From Acidobacteriota bacterium (GTDB lineage Bacteria; Acidobacteriota; UBA6911), in contig OY761556.1 of assembly GCA_963664705.1 (NCBI GenBank), forward strand, positions 6,656,001 through 6,720,000: a stretch of DNA of 64,000 nt, in the 5' to 3' direction. The translations under genes were made by a program, and so were the position numbers. The stretch's first letter is position 1; each line of letters starts with the position of its first letter. Shown here in pieces: positions 51,977 through 64,000 of this stretch. A model generated the notes under the pieces. The model was not told the origin of the DNA. It saw only the letters and a list, made by a program, of their open reading frames with translations, and did not search any database.

Positions 51977-52053
51977 GCGCCCGTAGCTCAGCTGGATAGA
52001 GCGTTTGACTACGAATCAAAAGGTCGCAAGTTCGAGTCTTGCCGGGCGCACCA
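51977..52053 (+). tRNA. tRNA-Arg(ACG)
   Basis: GCGCCCG acceptor stem, D-arm AGCTCAGCTGGATAGAGC, anticodon arm TTTGA-CTACGAA-TCAAA, TTCGA T-loop, encoded CCA. Confidence 0.97.
52007..52051 (+). repeat. attL core (tRNA 3' part)
   Basis: GACTACGAATCAAAAGGTCGCAAGTTCGAGTCTTGCCGGGCGCAC, identical to 63370-63414. Confidence 0.95.
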
Positions 52054-52117
52054 CAAATCCTTGATTCTTCTGTAGTTGCCCATCTTCTGAAATCCGTAGT
52101 CCCTGGCCATAAGCACC

Positions 52118-52138
52118 TTGGGGGTTATTTGGGGGTAA
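52118..52138. other. Putative integrase arm-type binding site
   Basis: TTGGGGGTTATTTGGGGGTAA, identical at 61612-61632 and 63222-63242, variant at 63481-63500. Confidence 0.7.
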
Positions 52139-53212
52139 TCAGGCGGTTTTCGTCTTGTCTTTCGACGTAACTGCCAGCGAAGCTCCAAGCGCATTCATTG
52201 CCGCCCGGGTGTGCTCCGACGAGAGGTGAGCATATCTCAGTGTCATCTCAAAATCCTTATGCCTGAGAATTTCCTTCACGGTCGCGAGCGGAACTCCGCT
52301 CATGACCATGTGAGAGGCAGCGGTGTGTCTCAGTGTGTGGAATGTGACGTCTTCCAGCTTTGCCGCCTTGACAGCTTCCTCGAACTGCCGCTTGAGATCC
52401 CAGTAGGGCTGCCCTTTGATCTTCCCAGTGAAGACATAAGGAGAATCAAAGCGACGTGGAATGGATCGAAGAATCTCAACCGCTCTTTTGTCCAGCGGGA
52501 TGGTGGAATATTCGCCGTTCTTCTGGTCGAGGATTTCCAGATATTCCTGGCGAAGGTTGACATGCTCCCACTTCAGTCGAAAGACTTCGCTTTTGCGCAG
52601 TCCGGTGTGAAGTGCGAGCTCAATCATCTGCTTTAAGTCCGGAGTTGGACTGGCGTCCAGAAGAATGCTGCATTCTTCCGCGGTCAGATATCGCAACCGG
52701 CGATTGTTTTCCTTGAACTGCTTTACTCCGTGGCATGGATGGCTTTGGATAACCTTCCACTCAACAGCTTTGCTGAACAGATGCCGCAGACAAGCCATGC
52801 GGCGGTTGACCGTTGCCGGTTTGAACGGCAATTTGCGCCGGCTTTCTTTGTTCATCAGTTCAGCCTGGTACTTTTCAATGTCGGCACGTGTGATGCTGCT
52901 AAGCAAAGTGCCACTTCCGAATTGTGCTTTGATGCTCTCCAGATGAGACTCCTTGCTTTTGGCAGCTTTCTGGCCGATATCCTGGCACCATTGCGAATAC
53001 CGATCGGCGAATTGTCCGAGTGTGTCTTTGGAGACTCGTTTCTTTTCCAGGTATCGATCTTCATCAATGAGGGTCTGTATTTTCCTGAGATTTGTTTCAG
53101 CCATTTCCGGGGTAGCGCATGTTTCTCTTATTCGTACCCCTTTGAAGAACGTGTCTATCCTCCAGCGGTTGCCACGAGGCGCGATGCCAGGTGGTAACTT
53201 CTTTTTGCTCAT
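52139..53212 (-). CDS. int: Tyrosine recombinase (phage integrase)
   Basis: HTGLRKSE, QKNG, FHTLRHT, LRH, TLRYAH catalytic residues; adjacent to the tRNA. Confidence 0.96.
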   Translation of the reverse strand: MSKKKLPPGIAPRGNRWRIDTFFKGVRIRETCATPEMAETNLRKIQTLIDEDRYLEKKRVSKDTLGQFADRYSQWCQDIGQKAAKSKESHLESIKAQFGSGTLLSSITRADIEKYQAELMNKESRRKLPFKPATVNRRMACLRHLFSKAVEWKVIQSHPCHGVKQFKENNRRLRYLTAEECSILLDASPTPDLKQMIELALHTGLRKSEVFRLKWEHVNLRQEYLEILDQKNGEYSTIPLDKRAVEILRSIPRRFDSPYVFTGKIKGQPYWDLKRQFEEAVKAAKLEDVTFHTLRHTAASHMVMSGVPLATVKEILRHKDFEMTLRYAHLSSEHTRAAMNALGASLAVTSKDKTKTA

Positions 53213-53304
53213 ATTTGTATCTCTCCGTTGGTAAAGGATTGTCGATCAATAACATCCCTGGTTTAGGATGCACGTTCATTCATTGACACGGCTGTGTGGA
53301 GGTG

Positions 53305-53520
53305 TCAATTGGATTTTGGCTTGATCAATGCTCGTTCGCTTCTCCGGAATAAGACAAGGTATCGCCAAAAGTGCCCATTGGGATCCTGGAAGACGATGGC
53401 AGTTTCGGATTTCCAGACAATCCTGTGCACAAAATGACCATCCAAAATCAGGGCAGGGGAAACAGATTTCGTTACCTCGTGCCGGGCCAGATGGATTTTT
53501 GTCATCTCAAGAAAGCTCAT
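53305..53520 (-). CDS. Small hypothetical protein
   Basis: 71 aa between primase and integrase, same strand. Confidence 0.45.
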   Translation of the reverse strand: MSFLEMTKIHLARHEVTKSVSPALILDGHFVHRIVWKSETAIVFQDPNGHFWRYLVLFRRSERALIKPKSN

Positions 53521-53540
53521 GCTATTGATTCCTCAGGTTG

Positions 53541-53589
53541 CGAGAAAAGCGGGATAAGCGAGATAAGCCGCCTTTTCTCGCTTTTCACG
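53541..53589. repeat. 9-bp iteron cluster, putative origin
   Basis: CGAGAAAAG CGGGATAAG CGAGATAAG, then inverted CTTTTCTCG CTTTTCACG, at the primase 3' end. Confidence 0.65.
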
Positions 53590-55666
53590 CAGATTTCCAT
53601 ACGGTTAACGGCCTTCCTTTGGTCTGTTTGCTCTCTTTTGTCACTTTGCCCACGCGCAATAATATATCCAGAGCTAGATCTTTCTCGCGAGTTCGATGCC
53701 CTCCAAAAAGGCGCCCAATCTCATCGTCTGTCAGGGATCCATCCGCTGATTCCTGCAAGGCATCGATAATCCTATCCGCACACTGATTCCCGGTCTTGGT
53801 TCCGAAGACATAGCGAACTGATGCATCGCAATAGTCCCATACTGCTGTTGCCGCCTGGAGATGTTCAATGCGGATCACGTTGGAACAATCCATTAGCGCA
53901 TAAATCAGGCTCAGCCGAAGCACTTGTGCCTCTGCCCGATTCAATAATCCACCAGCCAACCCAGGTTGGCCTTCAGATAAAGGGAAATAGATTGTTTCCC
54001 ACATTTCATTTGCCGGCGTATTGCGGACGATCCTGCCGGCGTTTCGGGCAAGGATCACGGCTCGTTCCATCTGTTCCGTCAGGCTGTTCAGTATCTCAGG
54101 CGGCAACGCCGCGCCGTGTGGTAATGCTTTTGATCTTTTTGCCAGCAGCCACAGGAACCGATTGCCAAACCCATTGCTCTGTTCTGTCGCAGACAGACAT
54201 CGGATCAATTCGTCTTTTGTGGTATGCCCGATGATCGAGACATGAGCGCCAGTTGAGTGGATAGGATTGTTACGAGTGAGCGTGGAAAGATTTCCGCTGT
54301 CCCACGCTTGCCGGATAACTCCTGAAAGGCTGTTTCCTTCTCGCCCCATGATCTTCAGCATGTTGGAAAATTCCGACTCGATGCAAAACAGACGCTTGTC
54401 TGGTTCTCCGGAATCAACAATCTCCTCTTCATAGTCGATAATTCGCCCACCCCTTTTTACCGGGACGGTTTTCCTCAATTCATCTCTGACGTGATAGATG
54501 AGTCCCTCTCCAGATGACAGCCCGCAGCGGACTCTACCTTCGGACCACTTGCCGTCAATCCTGCTGAATATTTCCCTTGGTGTGCTCCAGGATGTTCCTT
54601 TCCTCCCTTTGGAAGATTCTCCAATCACCACGGCGAAAATCCGAGCTGGATGCAGGTCATTTTGCACGGCTGCGTGTGCGCTGGACCCAATGATGTTTCC
54701 AAACGCGGCTAACACATGGATGAGCACAGAGGCCGGATCCGCTTCAGTATATGGGTCTATCGCGCGGACAATATCGCCAGGCAATCCATATAGAGCTTCA
54801 GGAGCCAGAACTGGCCATGAAAGAACTGTCGGTTCATTTTTCTGGCGCATCGAAATGTAGGGAGTCTTTTCATATGGAGACCCCTTTTGCATATGCTGGA
54901 TCAATTGATCATAAGTGCCTCCAGCTTGAATCCAATCGGACACATCTCCCTTTTCCGGCAATCCAGGAAGCGTCACAATCCCGACTCGGTTAGCGATAGG
55001 CATCAGATTGCGGGCAACGTCTCTTGCATGCCGTTCACCTGGCTCATCGTTATCTGGAAATATGGTCACTTCTTTACCGGTGAACAATGAATTGAAGTCC
55101 GCCCTCCATTTGCCGGCTCCTCCCGGATTGCAGGTTGCGGGAATGCCAATTGACCAGAGATGATCAACGTCCTTTTCGCCTTCGACGACGCAGACCATCT
55201 TTGAATCTTTCCATTCCGGCAACCTGTAGGGCAACAGCTTCACGCCCTGCATGCATCCCTCACCGCCGATCCACCCGCTGCCGTCCGCTCGCTCCTGAAC
55301 GAATGTCTTGCCTATTTGCGTCTTGTATCTTTTCACCCGAAACAGAGGATCCCCGTTCTCATTTCTATACACATAATCACAAATAAACTCCCAGCTGTTT
55401 TTCCCATTCAGCAGCCCATGATCACGCAGCCAGGATGAGACCGCTTTCCGGTTATCGGGATGAAGGCCGGAAATAAACGCCGCCAGATCCCAGGCATTGC
55501 CTGATTTGCCACAGGGGCCGCAGAGCCAGCAGTTCTTTTCCGGATTGATTGAAAGGCTGGGATGTTGATCGTCATGGCGAGGACACCGAAAAAGCATCTC
55601 TCTTCCTAAATACCGTCCACCCAAAAGGGCAGCTGCACGTGCGATCTCTATGCATTGGAGGGTCAT
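53585..55666 (-). CDS. Primase-helicase: CHC2 zinc finger, Toprim, DUF3987-like P-loop domain
   Basis: CPRHDD.HPSL..CGPC; VVEGEKD, PDNDEPG; GESSKGRKGTS; start coupled (ATGA) to upstream HTH gene. Confidence 0.85.
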   Translation of the reverse strand: MTLQCIEIARAAALLGGRYLGREMLFRCPRHDDQHPSLSINPEKNCWLCGPCGKSGNAWDLAAFISGLHPDNRKAVSSWLRDHGLLNGKNSWEFICDYVYRNENGDPLFRVKRYKTQIGKTFVQERADGSGWIGGEGCMQGVKLLPYRLPEWKDSKMVCVVEGEKDVDHLWSIGIPATCNPGGAGKWRADFNSLFTGKEVTIFPDNDEPGERHARDVARNLMPIANRVGIVTLPGLPEKGDVSDWIQAGGTYDQLIQHMQKGSPYEKTPYISMRQKNEPTVLSWPVLAPEALYGLPGDIVRAIDPYTEADPASVLIHVLAAFGNIIGSSAHAAVQNDLHPARIFAVVIGESSKGRKGTSWSTPREIFSRIDGKWSEGRVRCGLSSGEGLIYHVRDELRKTVPVKRGGRIIDYEEEIVDSGEPDKRLFCIESEFSNMLKIMGREGNSLSGVIRQAWDSGNLSTLTRNNPIHSTGAHVSIIGHTTKDELIRCLSATEQSNGFGNRFLWLLAKRSKALPHGAALPPEILNSLTEQMERAVILARNAGRIVRNTPANEMWETIYFPLSEGQPGLAGGLLNRAEAQVLRLSLIYALMDCSNVIRIEHLQAATAVWDYCDASVRYVFGTKTGNQCADRIIDALQESADGSLTDDEIGRLFGGHRTREKDLALDILLRVGKVTKESKQTKGRPLTVWKSA

Positions 55667-55863
55667 GTCCGCCCGACCTCCCGTTGTTTCATCCACTTCG
55701 TCAGATCGGACGGCTTTACGCGAAAGACCCGTCGGCAGGCTCCCTGGGACACAATCACGCTTGGGATCTCGCCACTGGCAATCATCTGGTGGATCTTGCT
55801 TCGCCGGAGATTGAGGATTTCGCCGACTTCCTTGGGCCCCAAAAGTTTTTCAATAATCTCCAT
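55663..55863 (-). CDS. Excisionase/AlpA-like HTH protein
   Basis: 66 aa, LL..KEV..IL..S.I..M..GEIPS..RV..DL..W; AAGGAG RBS. Confidence 0.85.
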   Translation of the reverse strand: MEIIEKLLGPKEVGEILNLRRSKIHQMIASGEIPSVIVSQGACRRVFRVKPSDLTKWMKQREVGRT

Positions 55864-55889
55864 TGTTCCAGGCTCCTTGTGAGATGAAG

Positions 55890-56300
55890 TTAATGGCCTT
55901 CTGCTTCGAGCTTTTTCCGTATTGCCGCAGCCTCTTCTTTGGGTAGCCGGTGCAGGTTGTATCGTTCACTGTAGGTGAACTCGAAAACAGGCTTTGGCGT
56001 TTCCTGACGGGGCAGCAGCGGAATAAATCGCTCCTGGTGGGGCATTTGGGGACTATCCGCCTTATGTTGAATCGATAGAGTTTTTCTAGCCTCAGCATCC
56101 TTTCGAAAAAAATACACCTTGCGCCCACCGGATCGTGCTTTGACAAATTTTGCGATGGCTGCATGCTGAATGATCAGGCCGTGCCTCTCACGCAGAATGA
56201 CGGCAATTCGCCTGTAGGAGACAGGCGGCCGTTCGCTTCGCAAATCGCTGATTTCACTTTTGTATGGGATCAAGCTTGATTGAAATGGTTTTCCCGGCAC
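55890..56300 (-). CDS. Basic putative DNA-binding (HTH-like) protein
   Basis: GTG start after AGGA; SYRRIAVILRERHGL..I..FVK helix pattern; repeat array directly upstream. Confidence 0.65.
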   Translation of the reverse strand: MPGKPFQSSLIPYKSEISDLRSERPPVSYRRIAVILRERHGLIIQHAAIAKFVKARSGGRKVYFFRKDAEARKTLSIQHKADSPQMPHQERFIPLLPRQETPKPVFEFTYSERYNLHRLPKEEAAAIRKKLEAEGH

Positions 56301-56350
56301 GGGTTATTCCTTTCTGTTTCTGCAACATGGCGCTATGGAAAGAGGCAACA

Positions 56351-56456
56351 TGTCTCCGCTTTGTATCCGCTGTGTGTCCACTTCAGCGTTGAGGATGTAG
56401 AAAAGTGGAGACAGAGTGGAGACAAAGCGGATACAAGTCTCCACTTTGTCTCCACT
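56351..56456. repeat. Array of eight TGTNTCCRCT-type 10-mers, 11-bp period, mixed orientation
   Basis: Direct at 56351, 56362, 56373; inverted at 56404, 56415, 56426; direct at 56436, 56447. Confidence 0.85.
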
Positions 56457-57141
56457 CCATTGGGGCTCGATGGGATGCTTCGAGGTATTGCGTCTAGGAT
56501 TGGAAGGGACCAATCCTAGAATTTCCATCAAGGCTTCCGTGGCTAACCGGCAACATGTAACATCGAATGAATCGCGCTCGATAGACAGAAAAAGGTGGGA
56601 GACATTTCTTGTCACGGCAATCTCCAATTAATGGGAAAGCATTGGTTCTTCCACCACTCATAGACAACGAGCGGGAAAATGGCTCAAAACTTACCGGGCA
56701 TTTTTCCGTATTGTCCTTTTTATCCGTGGCTCATTGCCGAATACCGTTTTGATAAAGAGTGAATGCCGTTCCGACCACCGGTTGCAGCACGTCAGTTTAT
56801 GTACCAAGAAAGGTCGTCACGCTGTCTTTCCATGCGCAGAAAATCCAGGAAAGAGTATACAGGCGATTTGAGAACACTTTTGTGGATGGCGGCTCATGAG
56901 GCCGCGAAAGAGGCCATTTGCCGGGCCAATTGAACAATGGTGAAACATGGAGAATCGATATGAACAATCACCCGGACGCAGAATAATAAAAAAACAAAAT
57001 GCAATTACCTATTGACACATTAAAGAATAAATACTCTTTTTTTAACGATCAATGGTTCAAGAAGTCACCGGAACGAGTGACGATAATTGCCTTCTTGATT
57101 CTGCCTCATCATGTGAAAATGGAGTCAAATTGGAGGCGTGC

Positions 57142-57534
57142 ATGGCTGCGGGTGATCCCCAGAGAACGTGGTTCCCGGAGATGATCCAGAAATTGCGGTT
57201 AGAGTGGAATGAAAGCATGGCTATCCCGGATCTAGTGGCACTATGCGATTCATTAGATAGCATGCTTCATGAAATTCGCTCCACTCGAAATATTCGCCCA
57301 CCTATCGTGAAGTGTCCTAAATGCGGAAAGGTTGGACCTGCCGCAGAAAGACATGTGAGTGTTCGTGCCATGATTCTTTCGCTAAGCCGGTTCGACATCG
57401 TCGATTCGGAGCGTGTAAAAATATTAGAGAAAAAATGGGCGGCTTATCGTAAAGAAAACGGGCTCAATCTCTATGGCAAGGCTGAAACTGGCGAAGTCAG
57501 AATCAGAAGCTGTGTCGATTCCGAAGCCGAGTAA
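57142..57534 (+). CDS. Hypothetical protein with CPKC motif
   Basis: 130 aa; GGAGG RBS. Confidence 0.7.
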   Translation: MAAGDPQRTWFPEMIQKLRLEWNESMAIPDLVALCDSLDSMLHEIRSTRNIRPPIVKCPKCGKVGPAAERHVSVRAMILSLSRFDIVDSERVKILEKKWAAYRKENGLNLYGKAETGEVRIRSCVDSEAE

Positions 57535-57718
57535 TGCGTCGCAGAATAAAGCTCCTGAAGGGAACTTTCAGGTGGTAGGCGGTCCTCACGCAATTTTTGG
57601 CGTTTTATATAAGTTAGGGACCCGACTTTACATATTGGCGTTCTTTCCCCCAATCGGACTTATCGGGACCGGTGATTCTGATTAGTGTTTTCTATGCGGC
57701 TAGAGCTATGGTAGAGGT

Positions 57719-58099
57719 ATGAACCTTCTGAATCGTTCAGTTCTCGGCTTTTTGGTTTTTGCTATCTCCATATGCTTTGGGGCATTGCTTGCGTTCTCGG
57801 CCAGTTCCGTTTTTCGGATGCATCCTTTTGGGGATAAGACTTCGGTTTTGTTTCCAGTATTAGTAGGGATACCATTGGGCTGCGCGCTTGGAAGTGCCAC
57901 GAATCTAAAAATGCATAGACCAAAGATATATGAGAATCGCGGCATCCTGGTGGCGGCGGCGATTGTGGGAGCTTTGGGAGCAATGCTGTGCGTTGTTTTG
58001 GCTGATGCGCTTGAAGGCAAAATATTGCTCCTAAGCCCCTTCATTGTGAGCATCCTGTCTTTTGGAGCATTTTGCTTTTTAATTCATTCCAGGCCCTGA
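57719..58099 (+). CDS. Small 4-TM membrane protein
   Basis: 126 aa hydrophobic ORF; AGAGGT close upstream. Confidence 0.55.
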   Translation: MNLLNRSVLGFLVFAISICFGALLAFSASSVFRMHPFGDKTSVLFPVLVGIPLGCALGSATNLKMHRPKIYENRGILVAAAIVGALGAMLCVVLADALEGKILLLSPFIVSILSFGAFCFLIHSRP

Positions 58100-58259
58100 G
58101 ACAATTACCATTATGGCGTTCTCTCCCATATTCGGACTTCCTGGGACTTGTGTCTAGAAATATGTGATCTAAAATCAATTGTTTCACATCCTACAAGTCA
58201 GCTACAGTTTAGCCTTGGTCTGCGTCAGTTACGCAATTGCATTATGTGAGGGGCTGAAA

Positions 58260-59702
58260 TTGTCTGTCCAAGCGAAATGGTGCAAATTAGCGATGCACTG
58301 TATGGTTTTTACGTCCATACTGCATTATTCTGCTTTCAGTCAATCCGAAAGTAAGAACCCGATAGACAAGGCGCAATCCAGCGGTTCGTTCAATATTCAT
58401 GTGGATGTCGATTTAGTTACTACTGACGTGACCGTGACTGGAGCCGACGCGCCAGAATTTCAGGCCAGCGATTTTGCAATTTATGAAGACGATGTTTCTC
58501 AAAATCTAACCTACTTCTCTCGTGATCAACTTCCGATTGCAGTTGCGTTGTTGGTTGACAGCAGCGGCAGCATTGAAAAGCATCTGAATGAATTGCAAAT
58601 TGCGGCGCTGACTGCATTACGGCGTCTGAAAGCGGAAGATCAAGTCGCGCTCTATTCCTTTTCAGGCGGCTACAGGAAACTGAGCAACCTCACAGCTGAT
58701 CGATTGCATATAGCCAAATTACTCAGCCATCTCTCAATCATGGAAGGCGGGACTGATATATTTTATGCACTCCAGGATGCAACGCGTTACCTAAAAAGGG
58801 CAGCTCCGCATCATCGCAGAGCGATTATTCTTATTTCCGACAATTGCCATGCCAATGGCAAAGCCAGGCCCGACAAAATGCTGAATGAGTTGCTGGAAAG
58901 TGCCACCACGCTTTATGATATTGTAACTCCCAGCGACCATAGTGACTTGCCTTACTGTTTGATGACGGATCCCGCCATAAGAAAAATTTCTGCCGATTCC
59001 GGCGGTGAAATTGTGGATGTAAGAAACTCGATGTCGCTCAAAGGAGCATTGGGAAAAGCTATATCCAGAATTCGAATGCAATACACTTTGGGTTTCAATC
59101 CATCTGATCCCAGCCCAAAGGGGACATATCATAGATTAAAGGTCCGCTTTGCCGATGAGAATCGTTGCCGAACATGCAGAATTATCGGACGTAGCGGATA
59201 TTATTCAGGAGCATCGTTATCCGTTGCAGTTTCCGGCAAGACACAAGAAATAGCGCCACCTCACTCGACAGACTCTGATCAGCAGTTGTTGCAGAGAATT
59301 ATCCTTATTGCAGGGACATCTTCGCCAGAATTTCGTGAAATTCCATTCACGGTTACAACTGAAAAGCAAACAGCTCTCAGTGGAAAAAGAGAGGTTAAAC
59401 TTGATTTGCGGATTAATCCTTCTGAAATAGAGTTTCAGATTTCCAAGGGAAAACGAACCTACAAAGTGGTTGCAGCCATTCTGCACGCAGATGCGAAAGG
59501 AGAGATAAAAGGCTGCGAATCGTGGGTACTTGAAGATCAGCTTAGCAGGGAGGAATTTGATCGCATAATTAGGGACGGAATTCATGTAACTACTACGGTC
59601 AATTTGGAGCCACAAAATCAAATGCTAAAAGCCGTAATTTATGATGAAAACAGCGGCAAACTAGGCAGTGGATTTGTTTTTGGCTCTTACGGCGAGCGCT
59701 GA
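58260..59702 (+). CDS. Secreted acidobacterial VWA domain protein (island cargo)
   Basis: MIDAS DSSGS, GGTD, LISD, QYTLGF, RSGYY; start uncertain (58179-58293). Confidence 0.82.
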   Translation: MSVQAKWCKLAMHCMVFTSILHYSAFSQSESKNPIDKAQSSGSFNIHVDVDLVTTDVTVTGADAPEFQASDFAIYEDDVSQNLTYFSRDQLPIAVALLVDSSGSIEKHLNELQIAALTALRRLKAEDQVALYSFSGGYRKLSNLTADRLHIAKLLSHLSIMEGGTDIFYALQDATRYLKRAAPHHRRAIILISDNCHANGKARPDKMLNELLESATTLYDIVTPSDHSDLPYCLMTDPAIRKISADSGGEIVDVRNSMSLKGALGKAISRIRMQYTLGFNPSDPSPKGTYHRLKVRFADENRCRTCRIIGRSGYYSGASLSVAVSGKTQEIAPPHSTDSDQQLLQRIILIAGTSSPEFREIPFTVTTEKQTALSGKREVKLDLRINPSEIEFQISKGKRTYKVVAAILHADAKGEIKGCESWVLEDQLSREEFDRIIRDGIHVTTTVNLEPQNQMLKAVIYDENSGKLGSGFVFGSYGER

Positions 59703-59729
59703 TCACAACCATGATGGGAGGCATTCCCA

Positions 59730-60956
59730 ATGCGAGAAGCTGATATTTCGTTAAAAAATAACCGGATTTTAATACTTCTGATAATTGGAATCGTTTTTGT
59801 TTGCTTTTCAGTGCGTGTGAATAGCAGAGAGAATCAGATTCAATCTGTGGACAGGGTGCAACAGTCCAGCGGGCCGGATGGAGATGCAAAAATCCGAGTC
59901 TCCGCTAAAGAGATAAGATTTGATGCTGTAGTTTTAGATAAGAGCGGCCATCAAGCCATTGATCTAAAATCAGCTGATTTTGATATCTATCAAGATAATA
60001 AGAAGCAAACAGTCAATTCATGCACTTATATCGCCCATAGGCCAATCCATCTTGCAGTGCCAACTCACGTGTCAAAGGGATCAAAGACGGAGTCAATGAT
60101 AGCTTCTTCCGGACTGAGCGGCGTCGATACTCGACGAAAGATAGTCTTTTTCCCAAACTATCCCGCTATGACCCTCAAGCAAAGTCATGAGACCCAGATG
60201 TTTATTAAGAAGTTTATTGAGGACGAAATGCAGGAAGGGGATCTGGTCGCGATCACAATGAATCCGCAGGGCGATACGGAGTCGCAGATCTTCAGCTCTG
60301 ATAAAGCTTTTGTTCTTTCCGTGCTGACCCAGGGTAAATGGTGGAGCGGGCCACAACAGAATATGGAAGGGTATGGCTTGCCACTTAGTAATTGTATTCG
60401 TAAATTACAAAATATTCCCGGCCGCAAATCGTTAATAGTAATCTCACCTGAGCCGGCGTATTTGGCCGGCTACGTATACCAAGTAATATCCCCTGAATTA
60501 TTAGAGAAGATGCATGAAGTACCGGCTGATGCCGCTTTCCGGGCCGGAGTTGTCATTCACATAATAGATATTAGCGAACCGAAAAAACTTGATGCGATTG
60601 ATCACACTTTTTCTTCAGCTGGGAGTATTAGTGCTGCGGAAGAAGCAAACATGATTCGCCATGAACTCGCGAGAAAAAGTGCTGAGTCTCAATTTCCTTT
60701 GGCAAAAAGAACCGGAGGCCTTTTGGCCAAGAATTTATCAGCAAAAACAATGGAAAACATAAAGGAACAATTAGGCGGTTATTACCTGCTAACTTATACT
60801 CCGGAAGAGAGCACTTTCACTCCTCCCCCAGACTTGAGTAGGAGGCCTCCCTATCGCAAGATAAAAATCAAAGTGAAGCGATCAGGTATGGAAGTATATG
60901 CGCGAGATGGTTTCTTTGGAGTGCCATCACGCGAGAACACTGTAACGGGGAAATGA
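59730..60956 (+). CDS. Secreted acidobacterial VWA-related protein, degenerate MIDAS (island cargo)
   Basis: N-terminal TM/signal; DAVVLDK.G..DL...DF.IYQD, PGRKSL, TGG, YYLLTY.P, ARDGFF; GGAGG RBS. Confidence 0.78.
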   Translation: MREADISLKNNRILILLIIGIVFVCFSVRVNSRENQIQSVDRVQQSSGPDGDAKIRVSAKEIRFDAVVLDKSGHQAIDLKSADFDIYQDNKKQTVNSCTYIAHRPIHLAVPTHVSKGSKTESMIASSGLSGVDTRRKIVFFPNYPAMTLKQSHETQMFIKKFIEDEMQEGDLVAITMNPQGDTESQIFSSDKAFVLSVLTQGKWWSGPQQNMEGYGLPLSNCIRKLQNIPGRKSLIVISPEPAYLAGYVYQVISPELLEKMHEVPADAAFRAGVVIHIIDISEPKKLDAIDHTFSSAGSISAAEEANMIRHELARKSAESQFPLAKRTGGLLAKNLSAKTMENIKEQLGGYYLLTYTPEESTFTPPPDLSRRPPYRKIKIKVKRSGMEVYARDGFFGVPSRENTVTGK

Positions 60957-61166
60957 TTTCCTCATTTCTGACCCTTTAAAAACCGCATTTTTGTCTTAAG
61001 TCCCAAGAAACGGCATTCGAGGAAACTACTCTGGCTTTGCAACAGTGGCGGATTCCATTTTTGCTGGCAGCTAAGTTTCAAGCTTTGAAAGATGACGCTT
61101 TTGTGGAATGATCTCTGGAATCGCTTCTAATCTTATAGTCCATGAAATTACTTGGCCTAAATTCGA

Positions 61167-61216
61167 GACGCACTAAACACGCAGAATTTACGCACCATCG
61201 GCGCACCAAGCACGCA
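61167..61216. repeat. Five (A/G)CGCA-core repeats at 11-bp period
   Basis: GACGCAC, CACGCAG, TACGCAC, GGCGCAC, CACGCAT at 61167, 61178, 61189, 61200, 61211. Confidence 0.7.
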
Positions 61217-61308
61217 TCCGGATAAATGCCCTTCCGGAAACTTGAATTCTAAGGCGAAGCCTTAGGGATGGTGTCTTACTACAGATATTTCCACAAGCAG
61301 CAACACCT

Positions 61309-61391
61309 CACCGGACCATACCCTGACAAACACCGGACAAGCGCCGGACACCGAACAGACGTCGAACAACAGTCGAACAAACACCGAACAG
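61309..61391. repeat. About eight CACCG(G/A)ACA-type repeats, mostly 11-bp period
   Basis: CACCGGACCA, CACCGGACAA, CGCCGGACA, CACCGAACAG, CGTCGAACAA, AGTCGAACAA, CACCGAACAG. Confidence 0.75.
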
Positions 61392-61531
61392 TAGATATCC
61401 AGAATGCCTTCTCTGTGCGTATTCTGATCTGCGTTCTGATAAAGGTTGATAGAGAACGCAAGCTGAACAATGGGGTACTAGTGGATCGATGATTGAGGCT
61501 CCGACCGGTGCTCAGTCATTCATAGCCCAGA

Positions 61532-61632
61532 CTTTTCTCGCTTATCTCGCTTTTCTCGCATGCCCGGATATTTTGAATTGTTCCCGCGATGTCGGAATTA
61601 CTTGAAAATTCTTGGGGGTTATTTGGGGGTAA
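61532..61632 (+). repeat. Imperfect ~100-bp direct repeat, copy 1 (three iterons plus arm site)
   Basis: CTTTTCTCG CTTATCTCG CTTTTCTCG ... GAAAATTCTTGGGGGTTATTTGGGGGTAA; homologous to 63139-63242. Confidence 0.85.
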
Positions 61633-61642
61633 ATATCGATGT

Positions 61643-61663
61643 TTATTTATTTACAATAAATAA
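61643..61663. promoter_or_regulatory. Inverted repeat in the abiE promoter, candidate AbiEi operator
   Basis: TTATTTATT-TAC-AATAAATAA overlapping a TTTACA -35-like hexamer. Confidence 0.55.
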
Positions 61664-61684
61664 CAAATATGTTAATTATTATAT

Positions 61685-62326
61685 ATGAAATATGGATCGC
61701 TGGTTGAGCTGGTTGGCTCCATGGAATGCTTCGATCTGCAGCTGCTTGTGCAGGCATTCGCTGAACCGCGAGAAATTATCCGGGTGCAGTTGTCCCGCTG
61801 GATCAGCGACCACAAGGTAATCAGTCTGCGACGCGGAGTTTATACGCTCCCAGACACCTATCGCCGCGTATCTATCGTGCCGGCAAGACTGGCGAATCAA
61901 CTCTATCACCCATCTTATCTGAGCGGCTTGTGGGCTTTGGGTTACTACGACATGATCCCCGAAAGAGTCGTATGGTTGACGAGCGTAACTCCTCGGGTGC
62001 CCCGTCGTTTTGACAATTCTCTTGGCATTTTCGATTATCGCAGCATTAAACAGAAGGCGTTTTTCGGATCTGTAACCGCACCCTACGGCGATCGGTCCAT
62101 ATTGGTTGCGGAACCTGAGAAAGCGCTACTGGATCATTGGCATCTCACATCGGGTGAGTGGACTGCAGAACGCCTTGAGGAAATGCGCTATCAGCATTGT
62201 CGGCAGGTGAATAGGGACAAGCTTCAAGCCTATGCAGATCGTTTCCAAAGCCCGCGCTTATATCGAGCAGCCGAACGCTGGCTGACGGTAACAGCCGAAG
62301 AAGAGAAAGGCACGGTTACTCTATGA
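61685..62326 (+). CDS. abiEi: Type IV TA antitoxin, AbiEi-like
   Basis: LSRW...LRRGVY, PSYLS...AL.YY.MIPE, AEPEKALLD; overlaps toxin start (ATGA). Confidence 0.88.
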   Translation: MKYGSLVELVGSMECFDLQLLVQAFAEPREIIRVQLSRWISDHKVISLRRGVYTLPDTYRRVSIVPARLANQLYHPSYLSGLWALGYYDMIPERVVWLTSVTPRVPRRFDNSLGIFDYRSIKQKAFFGSVTAPYGDRSILVAEPEKALLDHWHLTSGEWTAERLEEMRYQHCRQVNRDKLQAYADRFQSPRLYRAAERWLTVTAEEEKGTVTL

Positions 62327-63129
62327 GGGATCAGGCACTGGCACTTGCACGTGGAGCAAAAGATCCGGGGCAGGCGCTCAACCTGCTGCGAGAATATCTC
62401 CAAACGCTTGTCCTGCGATCATTTCATGAGTGTGAGGCATTTCGTAATCTGGCGTTTGTCGGCGGTACAGCGTTACGCTTCCTCCATAATCTGCCGCGTT
62501 TTTCTGAAGATCTCGATTTCTCGATGGTGTCTGAAAAGGGCTATGCCGGCATGGAGTGGATGTCGAAAGTCAAACGTGATTTGTCTCTGGCAGGATTCGA
62601 TCCCCACCTCACCTGGAATGATCGCAAGGTTGTTCATACAGGATGGATCCGGCTGGCAGGGCTGCTTTATGACGCCGGCATTTCCGGAGTGCCGGACCAG
62701 AAGCTGGCCATCAAGCTGGAAATTGACACTCGTCCACCGGCTGGGGCAATCTGCGAAAGAAGCATCATTACCCGTACCGTGACTTTTTTTGTCCAGCATT
62801 ACGATCTGCCGTCCATGATGGCGGGCAAGCTTCATGCTGCAATTACACGAAAATATGTCAAAGGCCGCGACTGGTATGATCTCCTGTGGTACAGGACGCA
62901 ACGTCCGCCAGTTGAACCGAACATTAATTTGCTTCAGAAGGCTTTGGATCAAACTCATCGTTCAGCCAAATACAATGCCCATGCGTGGCAAAGCTTGGTG
63001 AGTGATCGTCTGGCGTCAATCAGCATCAAAGATATTACCGGCGACGTTTATCCATTTTTGGAACACCCTCAGGATGCCGCACTCCTTACGCGGGAAAATC
63101 TGTCTGGTTTATTTTCAGTTCAACATTGA
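62323..63129 (+). CDS. abiEii: Type IV TA toxin, AbiEii/AbiGii nucleotidyltransferase
   Basis: FVGGTALR, RFSEDLDF, KLEID, KLHA, KGRDWYDL. Confidence 0.92.
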   Translation: MRDQALALARGAKDPGQALNLLREYLQTLVLRSFHECEAFRNLAFVGGTALRFLHNLPRFSEDLDFSMVSEKGYAGMEWMSKVKRDLSLAGFDPHLTWNDRKVVHTGWIRLAGLLYDAGISGVPDQKLAIKLEIDTRPPAGAICERSIITRTVTFFVQHYDLPSMMAGKLHAAITRKYVKGRDWYDLLWYRTQRPPVEPNINLLQKALDQTHRSAKYNAHAWQSLVSDRLASISIKDITGDVYPFLEHPQDAALLTRENLSGLFSVQH

Positions 63130-63138
63130 GGTTGCGCC

Positions 63139-63242
63139 CTTATCTCGCTTTTCCCGCTTTTCTCGCAAGCCGGGATAAGCTTGAAGTGCCCCTTGCGATG
63201 CTGGAATTTGCCGGAAAATTCTTGGGGGTTATTTGGGGGTAA
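63139..63242 (+). repeat. Imperfect ~100-bp direct repeat, copy 2 (three iterons plus arm site)
   Basis: CTTATCTCG CTTTTCCCG CTTTTCTCG ... GAAAATTCTTGGGGGTTATTTGGGGGTAA. Confidence 0.85.
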
Positions 63243-63369
63243 TTGGGAGGCAAAAACAGCTTTTGGTGAACAAGATGGACAAATCAAATATCCTAATTAC
63301 AGCTAATAACCATGAGGGTGCGACGCATATTCTTGATTTATCTGGATTTATGAAAAATGCTCCTGGAGG

Positions 63370-63414
63370 GACTACGAATCAAAAGGTCGCAAGTTCGAGT
63401 CTTGCCGGGCGCAC
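63370..63414 (+). repeat. attR core (45-bp duplicate of tRNA-Arg 3' part)
   Basis: Identical to 52007-52051; lacks the tRNA 5' half. Confidence 0.95.
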
Positions 63415-63438
63415 TCTAACCCCTTCAATCCTCTTAAC

Positions 63439-63654
63439 TTAAGCACCCGGTTCAATTCGCAACTCCTGTTCATGCTGTCCTTGGGGGCTATATGGGGGCA
63501 GTTGTGCTGTTTTTGCCTCTTCTTTGGGTTTCACTTTCAAAGCTTTACTCAATGCTTCCAATGCTTCTTGCCGATGTTCCGGTGATAGATGCGAATATCT
63601 CAGGGTTGTTGAATAATCCTAGTGTCTGAGGATTTCCTTCACCGTGTGCAGATC
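63439..63654 (-). pseudogene. C-terminal remnant of a second tyrosine integrase
   Basis: Minus strand reads DLHTVKEILRH*DYSTTLRYSHLSPEHRQEALEALSKALKVKPKEEAKTA versus intact PLATVKEILRHKDFEMTLRYAHLSSEHTRAAMNALGASLAVTSKDKTKTA; in-frame TAG at 63619-63621; homology lost upstream. Confidence 0.85.
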
Positions 63655-64000
63655 CCGCAGGGAAAGCCTCAAAGCGGGATTGGTGAACGAAAACACGGAA
63701 AAGAAAGCCAAGCAACCCAAGGAGGGAAGCGGAGCATGAGCCCTGCCAGTCTTCAAAATATTCTCGCATCCGGTAGACGTTCCCCCGCATTTTGCGTTCT
63801 TGGATAGTAAGGGTTACTTGTTGGCAGCATGATTGCCAGATTCGTGAGGGTGGTGGTAGGCTCTTGAAACCCAAGGAGGTTTTCATTGCGGAAGCCTTTT
63901 GATAAGAAAATGCATCAGCTTCAGAATAGCCTTTTGGTTGGCGTTCTAATATTCATTATTTCCTGCGTTATTGCCGTTACAGCAAAGAACAACATTGCCC

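Follow-up and report, generated by a model that had tools for sequence, protein, structure and literature searches.

The window analysed here is a stretch of 64,000 nucleotides (contig OY761556.1, positions 6,656,001 to 6,720,000) from the single 6.89-Mb contig that forms the chromosome of an Acidobacteriota bacterium (genome G000), and it contains an att-delimited island of 11.4 kb. This island is an integrated, helper-dependent mobile element. The first-pass annotation, made from the letters alone, had already described an acidobacterial host, a helper-dependent element, perfect 45-bp att repeats, an intact integrase, a Xis-like helix-turn-helix (HTH) gene coupled to a CHC2-Toprim-DUF3987 primase, and no recognisable capsid, terminase, relaxase or type IV secretion system (T4SS) gene; all of this was confirmed, the last as no profile match in the 10 element open reading frames (ORFs) against Pfam, NCBIfam and PHROGs. 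It gave the transfer route as unknown; a specific candidate can now be named, namely an oriT-like motif together with a TraK/StbA-like gene, both also present in two MOB_F/MPF_T integrative and conjugative elements (ICEs). This DNA signal in common with two conjugative elements suggests that the island spreads via their mating machinery. We consider it probable that the element is a relaxase-less, oriT-carrying tRNA-Arg island mobilised by conjugation in trans by the resident MOB_F ICEs, and not a phage satellite. The features on which this depends are as follows (aa, amino acids; IR, inverted repeat):

51977..52053, + strand: tRNA-Arg(ACG), the integration target (ARAGORN; Rfam RF00005)
52007..52051, + strand: attL core, 45 bp, exact repeat of 63370-63414
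52139..53212, - strand: intact tyrosine integrase, 357 aa (PF00589, E 4e-31; phrog_1; catalytic motifs R, HxxR, H and Y present)
53585..55696, - strand: CHC2-Toprim primase fused to a DUF3987 helicase (PF01807, Toprim (weak), PF13148)
55663..55863, - strand: Xis/AlpA-like HTH protein, 66 aa (PF12728, E 1.7e-9; TIGR01764)
55890..56300, - strand: o136, a TraK/StbA-like HTH protein of 136 aa, homologue of the gene between relaxase and ParA-like ATPase in MOB_F ICEs
56352..56455, no strand: an 8-bp repeat present eight times, in either orientation, between motif and o136; candidate binding sites of o136
56466..56528, + strand: oriT-like core (hairpin IR2, 14-mer, hairpin IR1)
56466-56470/56480-56484: arms of hairpin IR2
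56482-56495, + strand: the nearly invariant 14-mer GAGGTATTGCGTCT, written as GAGGTATTG(C/T)GTCT
56493-56503/56510-56520: arms of hairpin IR1
63370..63414, + strand: attR core, exact repeat of attL

The non-coding DNA before o136, from about 56290 to 56530, contains a core that is likely a transfer origin (oriT), and defines a candidate oriT family for one MOB_F/MPF_T ICE family in Acidobacteriota. The exact 14-mer occurs three times in 6.89 Mb, once in the island and once beside each of the two TrwC genes of the chromosome, while 0.05 copies are expected by chance under an order-5 Markov model. Over 51 bp, the island core differs from the two ICE copies by 2 and 5 mismatches. Apart from one att-like copy, the DNA shared by the island and the ICEs is limited to 56403-56556 and 55890-55994. 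When six intergenic regions of the first ICE (ICE1) were tested against six other ICE loci, the motif region alone matched all six. The motif also accompanies o136 elsewhere: among 88 loci with an o136 start, reduced to 74 distinct ones by a 250-bp length filter, the strict motif lies upstream of the o136 homologue in 65 and a loose version in 69, mostly 155-190 bp from the start; genuine upstream sequence was lacking in two of the five misses. Pairing in IR1 is Watson-Crick in 373 of 385 cells across 35 distinct cores, with compensatory changes at three positions and four pair types at one position; the motif loci and IR1 cells come from related sequences, so these counts are not independent. 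Read on the mRNA-like strand, the IR1 mismatches include eight A.C and zero G.T, a pattern unlike that expected if the ICE transcript formed an RNA hairpin here. A known RNA was rejected as an identity for the core, as Rfam gave no credible match and only sub-threshold miRNA hits. A 107-aa ORF at 56304-56627 was not counted as a gene, since it overlaps the oriT-like DNA and its tblastn matches reflect conserved non-coding sequence.

The motif reaches beyond this chromosome, being present in 19 of 137 genomes of the class (33 matches, compared with 1 for the reversed control). Thirty of these motif loci were fetched and 27 have IR1; 10 lie beside a relaxase, one beside the 117-aa ORF described below, o136 and the ATPase, three beside o136 and the ATPase, five beside o136 only, and eight stand alone, with neither o136 nor a relaxase within 1.5 kb (L187, L189, L190, L191, L196, L197, L203 and L206). 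These eight loci suggest that the DNA site is kept on its own. The stand-alone copies are from genomes of the same family, and some are near integrases or a tRNA. In two other loci (L077 and G495:C23), the motif occurs as an inverted pair spaced by about 4 kb.

The position of the nick can be predicted by analogy with plasmid R388, whose nic site is given as GGTGCGTATTGTCT/ATAGC, with a hairpin arm and 8 nt preceding the cut (PMC4814116). The acidobacterial sequence GTATTG[CG]TCT/A resembles this site, and the two most distant ICEs continue with TAGCTC after the motif. We therefore predict, with a modest preference, a nick after 56495 on the + strand; the alternative would be a nick about 8 nt beyond IR1 on the - strand. 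The stb genes are reported to be always 3′ of the nick (PMC3098194), which the - strand alternative fits better, as it does the stand-alone copies that keep IR1 and lose IR2. The R388-like placement conflicts with that report.

The gene beside the core, o136, had been listed in the first-pass annotation simply as HTH-like. Its structure model is indeed a three-helix HTH, and what had been overlooked is its kinship to ICE genes. Look-alikes in the ESM Atlas are TraK at 0.91 and StbA at 0.90 (PF17273, 34% of cluster, 0.91; PF28167, 91%, 0.90), and HTH_32 is weakly matched in 67 of the 108 members of the o136 alignment. Nothing significant came from Foldseek against the PDB or from an HMM search of PDB sequences. 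The o136 protein looks like TraK/StbA and the homology is remote; the stronger argument comes from synteny. In the ICEs, the o136 copy is the first of three genes beside the core and is followed by a KGGxGKST ATPase of the ParA/MinD type, with repeats upstream, and a comparable three-gene arrangement beside oriT is described for stbABC and traKLM (PMC3098194). The 8-bp repeats between motif and o136 are candidate o136-binding sites, by analogy with the StbA repeats (stbDRs) of R388 (PMC3098194). The repeat unit differs from element to element, as would be expected for cognate sites.

A query with the o136 sequence alone against a draw of 401 genomes from the phylum found only its own genome, while a profile search found it in 7 of 30 genomes of the genus. 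No match was found among PLSDB plasmids. In some ICE-type loci the o136 gene is duplicated in tandem (L094, L114, L128, L139 and L143).

Within the chromosome, o136 and its preceding DNA match two sites, at 5.658 and 6.485 Mb, and both are in ICEs:

L005/L164 (about 5.64-5.66 Mb) and L006/L169 (about 6.48-6.50 Mb): two ICEs of the MOB_F/MPF_T type, within tandem arrays of islands at tRNA-Ala(GGC) and tRNA-Met

The gene order in these ICEs is relaxase, 117-aa ORF, non-coding core with motif, o136, ATPase, a gene of unknown function, coupling protein and ardC. Both encode a TrwC relaxase (PF08751), an ATPase resembling ParA/MinD and a coupling protein of the TrwB type, the last followed by ardC, together with VirB4, B6, B9, B10 and B11 by Pfam and mutually homologous candidates for B2, B3, B5 and B8. 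With a relaxase, coupling protein and VirB set present in each, both ICEs appear complete by gene content and are candidate helpers on the same chromosome. The PF08751 profile, searched genome-wide, matched these two relaxase genes only and nothing in the island, and the best plasmid matches to the ICE relaxases, among the matches listed, are about 30% identical. Where the ICE1 array begins, the segment G000:C1:5584530-5584573, located 230 bp downstream of tRNA-Ala(GGC), matches the tRNA-Arg(ACG) att core at 43 of 44 positions.

Shared DNA of this kind could serve a purpose other than transfer. The captured segment might be a partition or regulatory unit, in which a StbA-like protein and stbS-like repeats stabilise the excised circle and the motif is an operator, with no conjugation involved. 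R388 StbA stabilises its plasmid through the stbDRs without StbB (PMC3098194), and the island likewise retains o136 with cognate-looking repeats and drops the ATPase. The 14-mer, though, is fixed while o136 and the repeats diverge, motif and IR1 are found in eight loci without o136 within 1.5 kb, and no sigma-70-like promoter overlaps the motif. We therefore regard this alternative as quite unlikely, and a partition role can in any case coexist with conjugative mobilisation.

The proposal of conjugative mobilisation gains from sister islands. The best 80 of 159 metagenome o136 loci were sorted by neighbourhood: 52 lie by tra-cluster genes (11 with a relaxase on the contig), four are directly before the same xis-primase pair as in the window, seven have another integrase or primase nearby and no tra gene, and 17 gave no information. 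Six islands, namely that of the window, one in genome G012 and the four from metagenomes, share the order motif, o136, xis, primase. Compared with the window, the five sisters are 82-89% identical in Xis and 71-83% in the primase, and only 45-51% in o136. A single origin of o136 in the six xis-primase islands was rejected by the approximately unbiased (AU) test on a 31-row tree (p-AU 4e-55), a subset chosen after a quick-mode tree of 82 rows, and at least five changes are forced. In one sister (L141), o136 is 90% identical to an ICE copy. The o136 copies of the sisters thus appear, from these trees and identities, to derive from several ICE lineages. Polyphyly of o136 combined with close Xis and primase sequences points to repeated capture and retention of the cassette by an unrelated backbone. 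We found no account of this element family in the open-access literature searched.

Not every sister is whole, since one has a broken integrase (L056) and three have truncated primases (L098, L145 and L057). In the latter three, the DUF3987 helicase part comes immediately after xis, the CHC2 and Toprim regions being deleted. Such damage would fit a composite island in decay, immobile or dying, with an ICE fragment retained by chance, as would a second-integrase remnant after attR, the degenerate distal arm of IR2 in the island copy, and the fact that no circle was seen, although read contigs break at the 45-bp att repeat. The core ORFs are all intact in the window, however, as are both 45-bp att sites, and the module has been placed at this position at least five times independently. 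Identity between the island integrase and those of the ICEs is only 27-30%, so the island is not a deleted ICE. On this evidence, decay is a very unlikely explanation.

Read data bear on both excision and replication. In four runs of one sample, which is probably that from which the genome came, contig depth of the element compared with its left and right neighbours was 12.5 vs 7.9/8.6, 17.7 vs 26.1/19.5, 24.5 vs 18.5/29.5 and 4.8 vs 5.6/6.5, which amounts to no consistent excess of the element. The attP and attB joints could not show in read contigs, which break at the 45-bp repeat, and none was listed. Wetland and sediment runs with a small share gave only pieces that are 90-97% identical, and in one raw-read run 0 reads were placed. 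Self-replication, which the first-pass annotation had proposed, is plausible from the primase-helicase and is not reflected in the depth figures.

The same annotation had seen in this layout a phage satellite, and the backbone of integrase, PF12728 and DUF3987 is indeed satellite-like; it lacks a packaging gene, and its helper is likely conjugative rather than a phage. As a phage satellite resembling a PICMI (phage-inducible chromosomal minimalist island) or a PICI (phage-inducible chromosomal island), the element would excise and replicate, and a helper phage would package it by way of a cis signal, with the ICE-derived segment incidental. Integrase, PF12728 and PF13148 are three of the four PICMI model genes, and 11.4 kb is within satellite size. 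Also on the chromosome, at about 2.56-2.58 Mb, is a tailed prophage whose genes include TerL, portal, protease, tail and tape-measure, and two islands of the same integrase clade have a gene in the TerS position. Set against this, no TerS, capsid or sid/psu gene was found in the element ORFs scanned, the element lacks the CxxCxH-HTH gene of those two islands, and the integration site is not fis, the flanking gene beside tRNA-Arg(ACG) encoding a SLOG protein. IMG/VR yielded no relative of the primase or of o136 and no match to the motif, which does not rule out packaging. The HTH of o136 matches that of TerS with Z 6.3, tied with other HTHs, and its homologues sit in ICE tra clusters. Packaging by a phage would also leave the repeated capture of the oriT-like module unexplained, and we judge it unlikely.

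The two phage-linked relatives deserve attention in their own right. Eight tRNA-Arg integrases form one clade (support 98/98), and two members, without the motif, carry a gene for a CxxCxH-HTH protein in the variable region upstream of xis:

L003, G000:C1:1332197-1351344: island of this genome at tRNA-Arg(TCG), with an integrase 54% identical, a D5-type primase, type I restriction genes and no oriT motif
L051:12404-12892 (G014): CxxCxH-HTH gene of an island at tRNA-Arg(ACG), with an integrase 56% and a primase N-part 59% identical

In MK071653 and PQ109080, a homologue of the L003 gene immediately precedes the terminase gene, and in NC_074642 one is found two genes ahead of the terminase gene, although PQ109080 annotates another gene as TerS. 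A homologue of the L051 gene (56%) precedes TerL-like ORFs in IMG/VR contig L225; the gene itself has no direct phage hit by tblastn. The family profile matches the three phage genes at E ~2e-7, and a TerS PHROG is weakly matched by 25 of 113 family members. In structure searches, the G014 gene matched Sf6 TerS with Z 5.1 (rmsd 4.3, 89 aligned), tied with others, and all BFVD hits were above E 0.01. It is conceivable, and we put it forward tentatively, that a family of tRNA-Arg islands with one satellite backbone swaps its transfer module, using either a TerS-like gene and phage helpers or a captured oriT with a TraK/StbA cassette and MOB_F ICE helpers. The structure searches are suggestive in this respect, the L003 primase is of the D5 type, unlike that of the window, and the integrase tree inside the clade has no resolution for the direction of TerS/oriT exchange.

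Three loci elsewhere in the genome carry phage genes. The tailed prophage (L239, about 2.56-2.58 Mb) carries TerL, portal, protease, major tail, tape-measure and tail-fibre genes and is a possible helper for satellites in this genome. At 1.035-1.045 Mb, an element at tRNA-Val (L009) has integrase, primase, HNH, TerL, capsid, protease and portal genes and resembles capsid-forming PICIs (cf-PICIs), with no tail gene among the ORFs scanned. A capsid-only element (L008, 1.93 Mb) is at tRNA-Lys.

For conjugative mobilisation of the island, the following sequence of events is proposed. Int and Xis would excise the island as a circle, which the primase and SF6-type helicase would copy from the iterons at 53540-53581. 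The o136 protein would then bind its own repeats beside the motif and ready the site for an ICE TrwC-type relaxase, which would nick at the 14-mer. The ICE coupling protein and T4SS would export the strand, and Int would reinsert the island at tRNA-Arg of the recipient. AbiE may stabilise the island or defend against phage, and the von Willebrand factor A (VWA) genes would be passenger cargo.

Several points weigh against this proposal. Nicking, excision and transfer are inferred from sequence, and contig depth in the four runs shows no consistent amplification. The o136 of the island shares no more than 52% and 39% identity with the copies in the two resident ICEs, it has no significant Pfam, NCBIfam or PHROG match, and its fold match to StbA (7pc1, Z 5.4, rmsd 4.5, 58 aligned) is tied with generic HTHs. 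The motif is downstream of the relaxase gene, while most oriTs are upstream, and the R388-based nick placement would send the stb-like genes last, contrary to the report cited above (PMC3098194). IR2 is weak in the island, at -4.7 kcal/mol vs -13.5 in ICE1. The loci behind the motif and o136 counts are related to one another, and no TrwC was found in G012 (89% complete, 590 contigs), which carries a sister element.

The rest of the island and its right flank comprise the following features:

52120..52138, + strand: G-rich motif, putative integrase arm-type site, with further copies at 61614, 63224 and 63483
53305..53520, - strand: 71-aa ORF between integrase and primase, retained in sister elements
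53540..53581, no strand: 9-bp iterons, three direct and one inverted, just 3′ of the primase, candidate replication origin
57052..57534, + strand: 160-aa cargo ORF, with a 75% identical homologue in an insertion sequence (IS)-rich island region of G042
57719..58099, + strand: 126-aa hydrophobic cargo ORF, likely a membrane protein by its sequence (phrog_35519, a family of unknown function)
58179..59702, + strand: acidobacterial VWA protein with DxSxS motif (TIGR03436, 110.5 bits; best host paralogue 38%)
59730..60956, + strand: acidobacterial VWA-family protein without DxSxS (TIGR03436, 110.4 bits; best host paralogue 32%)
61532..61632, + strand: unit of about 100 bp (iteron triplet and arm-like motif) left of abiE, with a second copy at 63139-63242 (82% identity between copies)
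61685..62326, + strand: AbiEi antitoxin (PADLOC, E 5e-46)
62323..63129, + strand: AbiEii nucleotidyltransferase toxin (PF08843; PADLOC, E 5e-65)
63505..63651, - strand: remnant of the 3′ end of another integrase from this family, located beyond the element (57% over residues 309-357; repeats D1 and D4)

Four of the features described here had been missed in the first-pass annotation: the 71-aa ORF, the oriT-like region, the iteron- and arm-like repeats, and the second-integrase remnant after attR. The 45-bp att direct repeat is exact with no backward extension. By phylogeny, the integrase belongs to a clade of tRNA-Arg integrases that are 54-62% identical. The G-rich motif, likely an integrase arm-type site judging by its placement, has six copies in the genome, all at island ends or integrase remnants of this family. 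The 71-aa ORF is 68-69% identical in L056 and L141 and had no family match in profile searches. The primase probably starts at ATG 55666, overlapping the xis stop, which gives 693 aa; its PF13148 score is 28.2 bits (cut-off 27), and DUF3987 is described as an SF6/MCM-like helicase (PMC4889955). The same iteron triplet follows the primase in L056, L141 and L098, and the iterons of the window are a candidate replication origin. The closest primases (82% and 80% identical) sit in Acidobacteriota records.

GC content is 48.1% in the element and 44.9% in its cargo, compared with a left-flank value of 57.2% and a genome value of 53.2%. Low GC (46.5%) persists for about 5 kb beyond attR (63415-64000 of the window; L001:2000-6300), where the integrase remnant is accompanied by small exported-protein genes and an IS3-like transposase. 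We read this DNA as an older island at the same tRNA-Arg. In the search for empty sites, several relatives have tRNA-Arg(ACG) without such an integrase nearby, and none shares both flanks; the flanking genes are not conserved across the species compared.

Among the cargo genes, the 160-aa ORF has no family match. Both VWA genes are above the TIGR03436 cut-off, and this family has 31 matches in the host genome. The first-pass description of the VWA genes as host-type is right in that the family is of an acidobacterial type. Recent capture from this host was rejected, as paralogues only 38% and 32% identical indicate host-type cargo and not fresh copies. The abiEi-abiEii pair, also recognised in that annotation and supported by PADLOC, is adjacent with a 4-nt overlap and is a type IV toxin-antitoxin of the phage-defence kind. 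The DNA of the abiE cassette matches that of a copy located beyond attR of the G014 island at 87% identity. The unit of about 100 bp that brackets it recurs at island right ends, bracketing defence or toxin-antitoxin cassettes (also G000 5743653; L054:9448 and 13879), and may be a scar of cassette gain at attR.

What follows from these results is a testable transfer route for an island which tools based on gene content would class as a phage satellite, and a caution that integrase, AlpA and primase without virion genes do not in themselves prove phage dependence. A further outcome is a candidate oriT family, defined by an exact motif with two possible nick sites and coming from beyond the six species covered by the survey of iOriTs, which are introduced below. 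With regard to the origins of hitchers, the o136 tree would record repeated uptake of a helper oriT cassette by an unrelated backbone. If the helper switch is true, a single cassette exchange crosses the line between phage satellites and conjugative hitchers, and if the terminase-like relatives are real satellites, the family allows a direct test of a change in helper class. A review describes oriT capture by plasmids and de novo hitcher origins, and treats the emergence of hitchers as an open question (PMC11389934); in the literature covered, there is no case of one backbone using both helper classes.

Among known systems, PICMIs resemble the island in their integrase, AlpA/PF12728 and DUF3987 primase, their lack of capsid-remodelling genes and their small defence cargo (PMC10803314). 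The PICMI genes PF00589, PF12728 and DUF3987 (PF13148) are thus all present, while the island is not at fis, measures 11.4 kb vs about 6.7 kb (PMC10803314), and has an ICE-derived oriT-like module. PICIs and P4-like satellites are likewise elements of about 10 kb with integrase, regulator and primase-replicase (bioRxiv 10.1101/2022.09.14.508007). Compared with PICIs as described there, the island has three of five core components, with no TerS in PHROG and CxxCxH searches and no capsid morphogenesis gene, and unlike P4-like elements, its scanned ORFs have no psu-delta-sid match (Pfam, PHROGs).

On the conjugative side, the R388 oriT-stbABC and RP4 oriT-traKLM regions (PMC3098194; PMC4814116) share with the acidobacterial elements a MOB_F helper, a hairpin with a TATTG..TCT-type motif, and a small gene for a DNA-binding protein preceded by repeats; in the ICEs, a KGGxGK[ST] ATPase gene and a third gene come after it. 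They differ in that the ICE relaxase is transcribed towards the site, the island retains the first gene only, and the homology of o136 to StbA/TraK is remote. Integrative and mobilizable elements that encode a relaxase (iMOB) are unlike the island, which has none of its own. MGIVchHai6-type hitchers, which carry MobI, also combine an accessory protein with the lack of a relaxase, as described in the iOriT preprint (bioRxiv 10.64898/2026.01.13.699239); their oriT differs from that of the helper, however, whereas the core of the island is nearly identical to its helper's and its accessory gene is an unrelated HTH.

The nearest parallel is the iOriT, defined in that preprint as a relaxase-less integrative element carrying only an oriT, with MGIVflInd1 cited as an example. 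The study covers six nosocomial Proteobacteria, and its main text never mentions 'Acidobacter', 'primase' or 'TraK'. Every iOriT property that can be checked from sequence is found in the island: it is att-delimited, with one tyrosine integrase, no relaxase or mating-pair-formation genes, an oriT-like sequence common to co-resident ICEs, little other similarity to the helper, and defence cargo near oriT, with o136 as an additional gene shared with the ICEs. Unlike the iOriTs described, the island has in addition a primase-helicase of satellite type and a TraK/StbA-like gene of its own, and its site corresponds to one downstream of the helper relaxase. The element is probably of a known kind, an oriT-hitchhiking island, here with a satellite-type backbone and with candidate helpers on the same chromosome.

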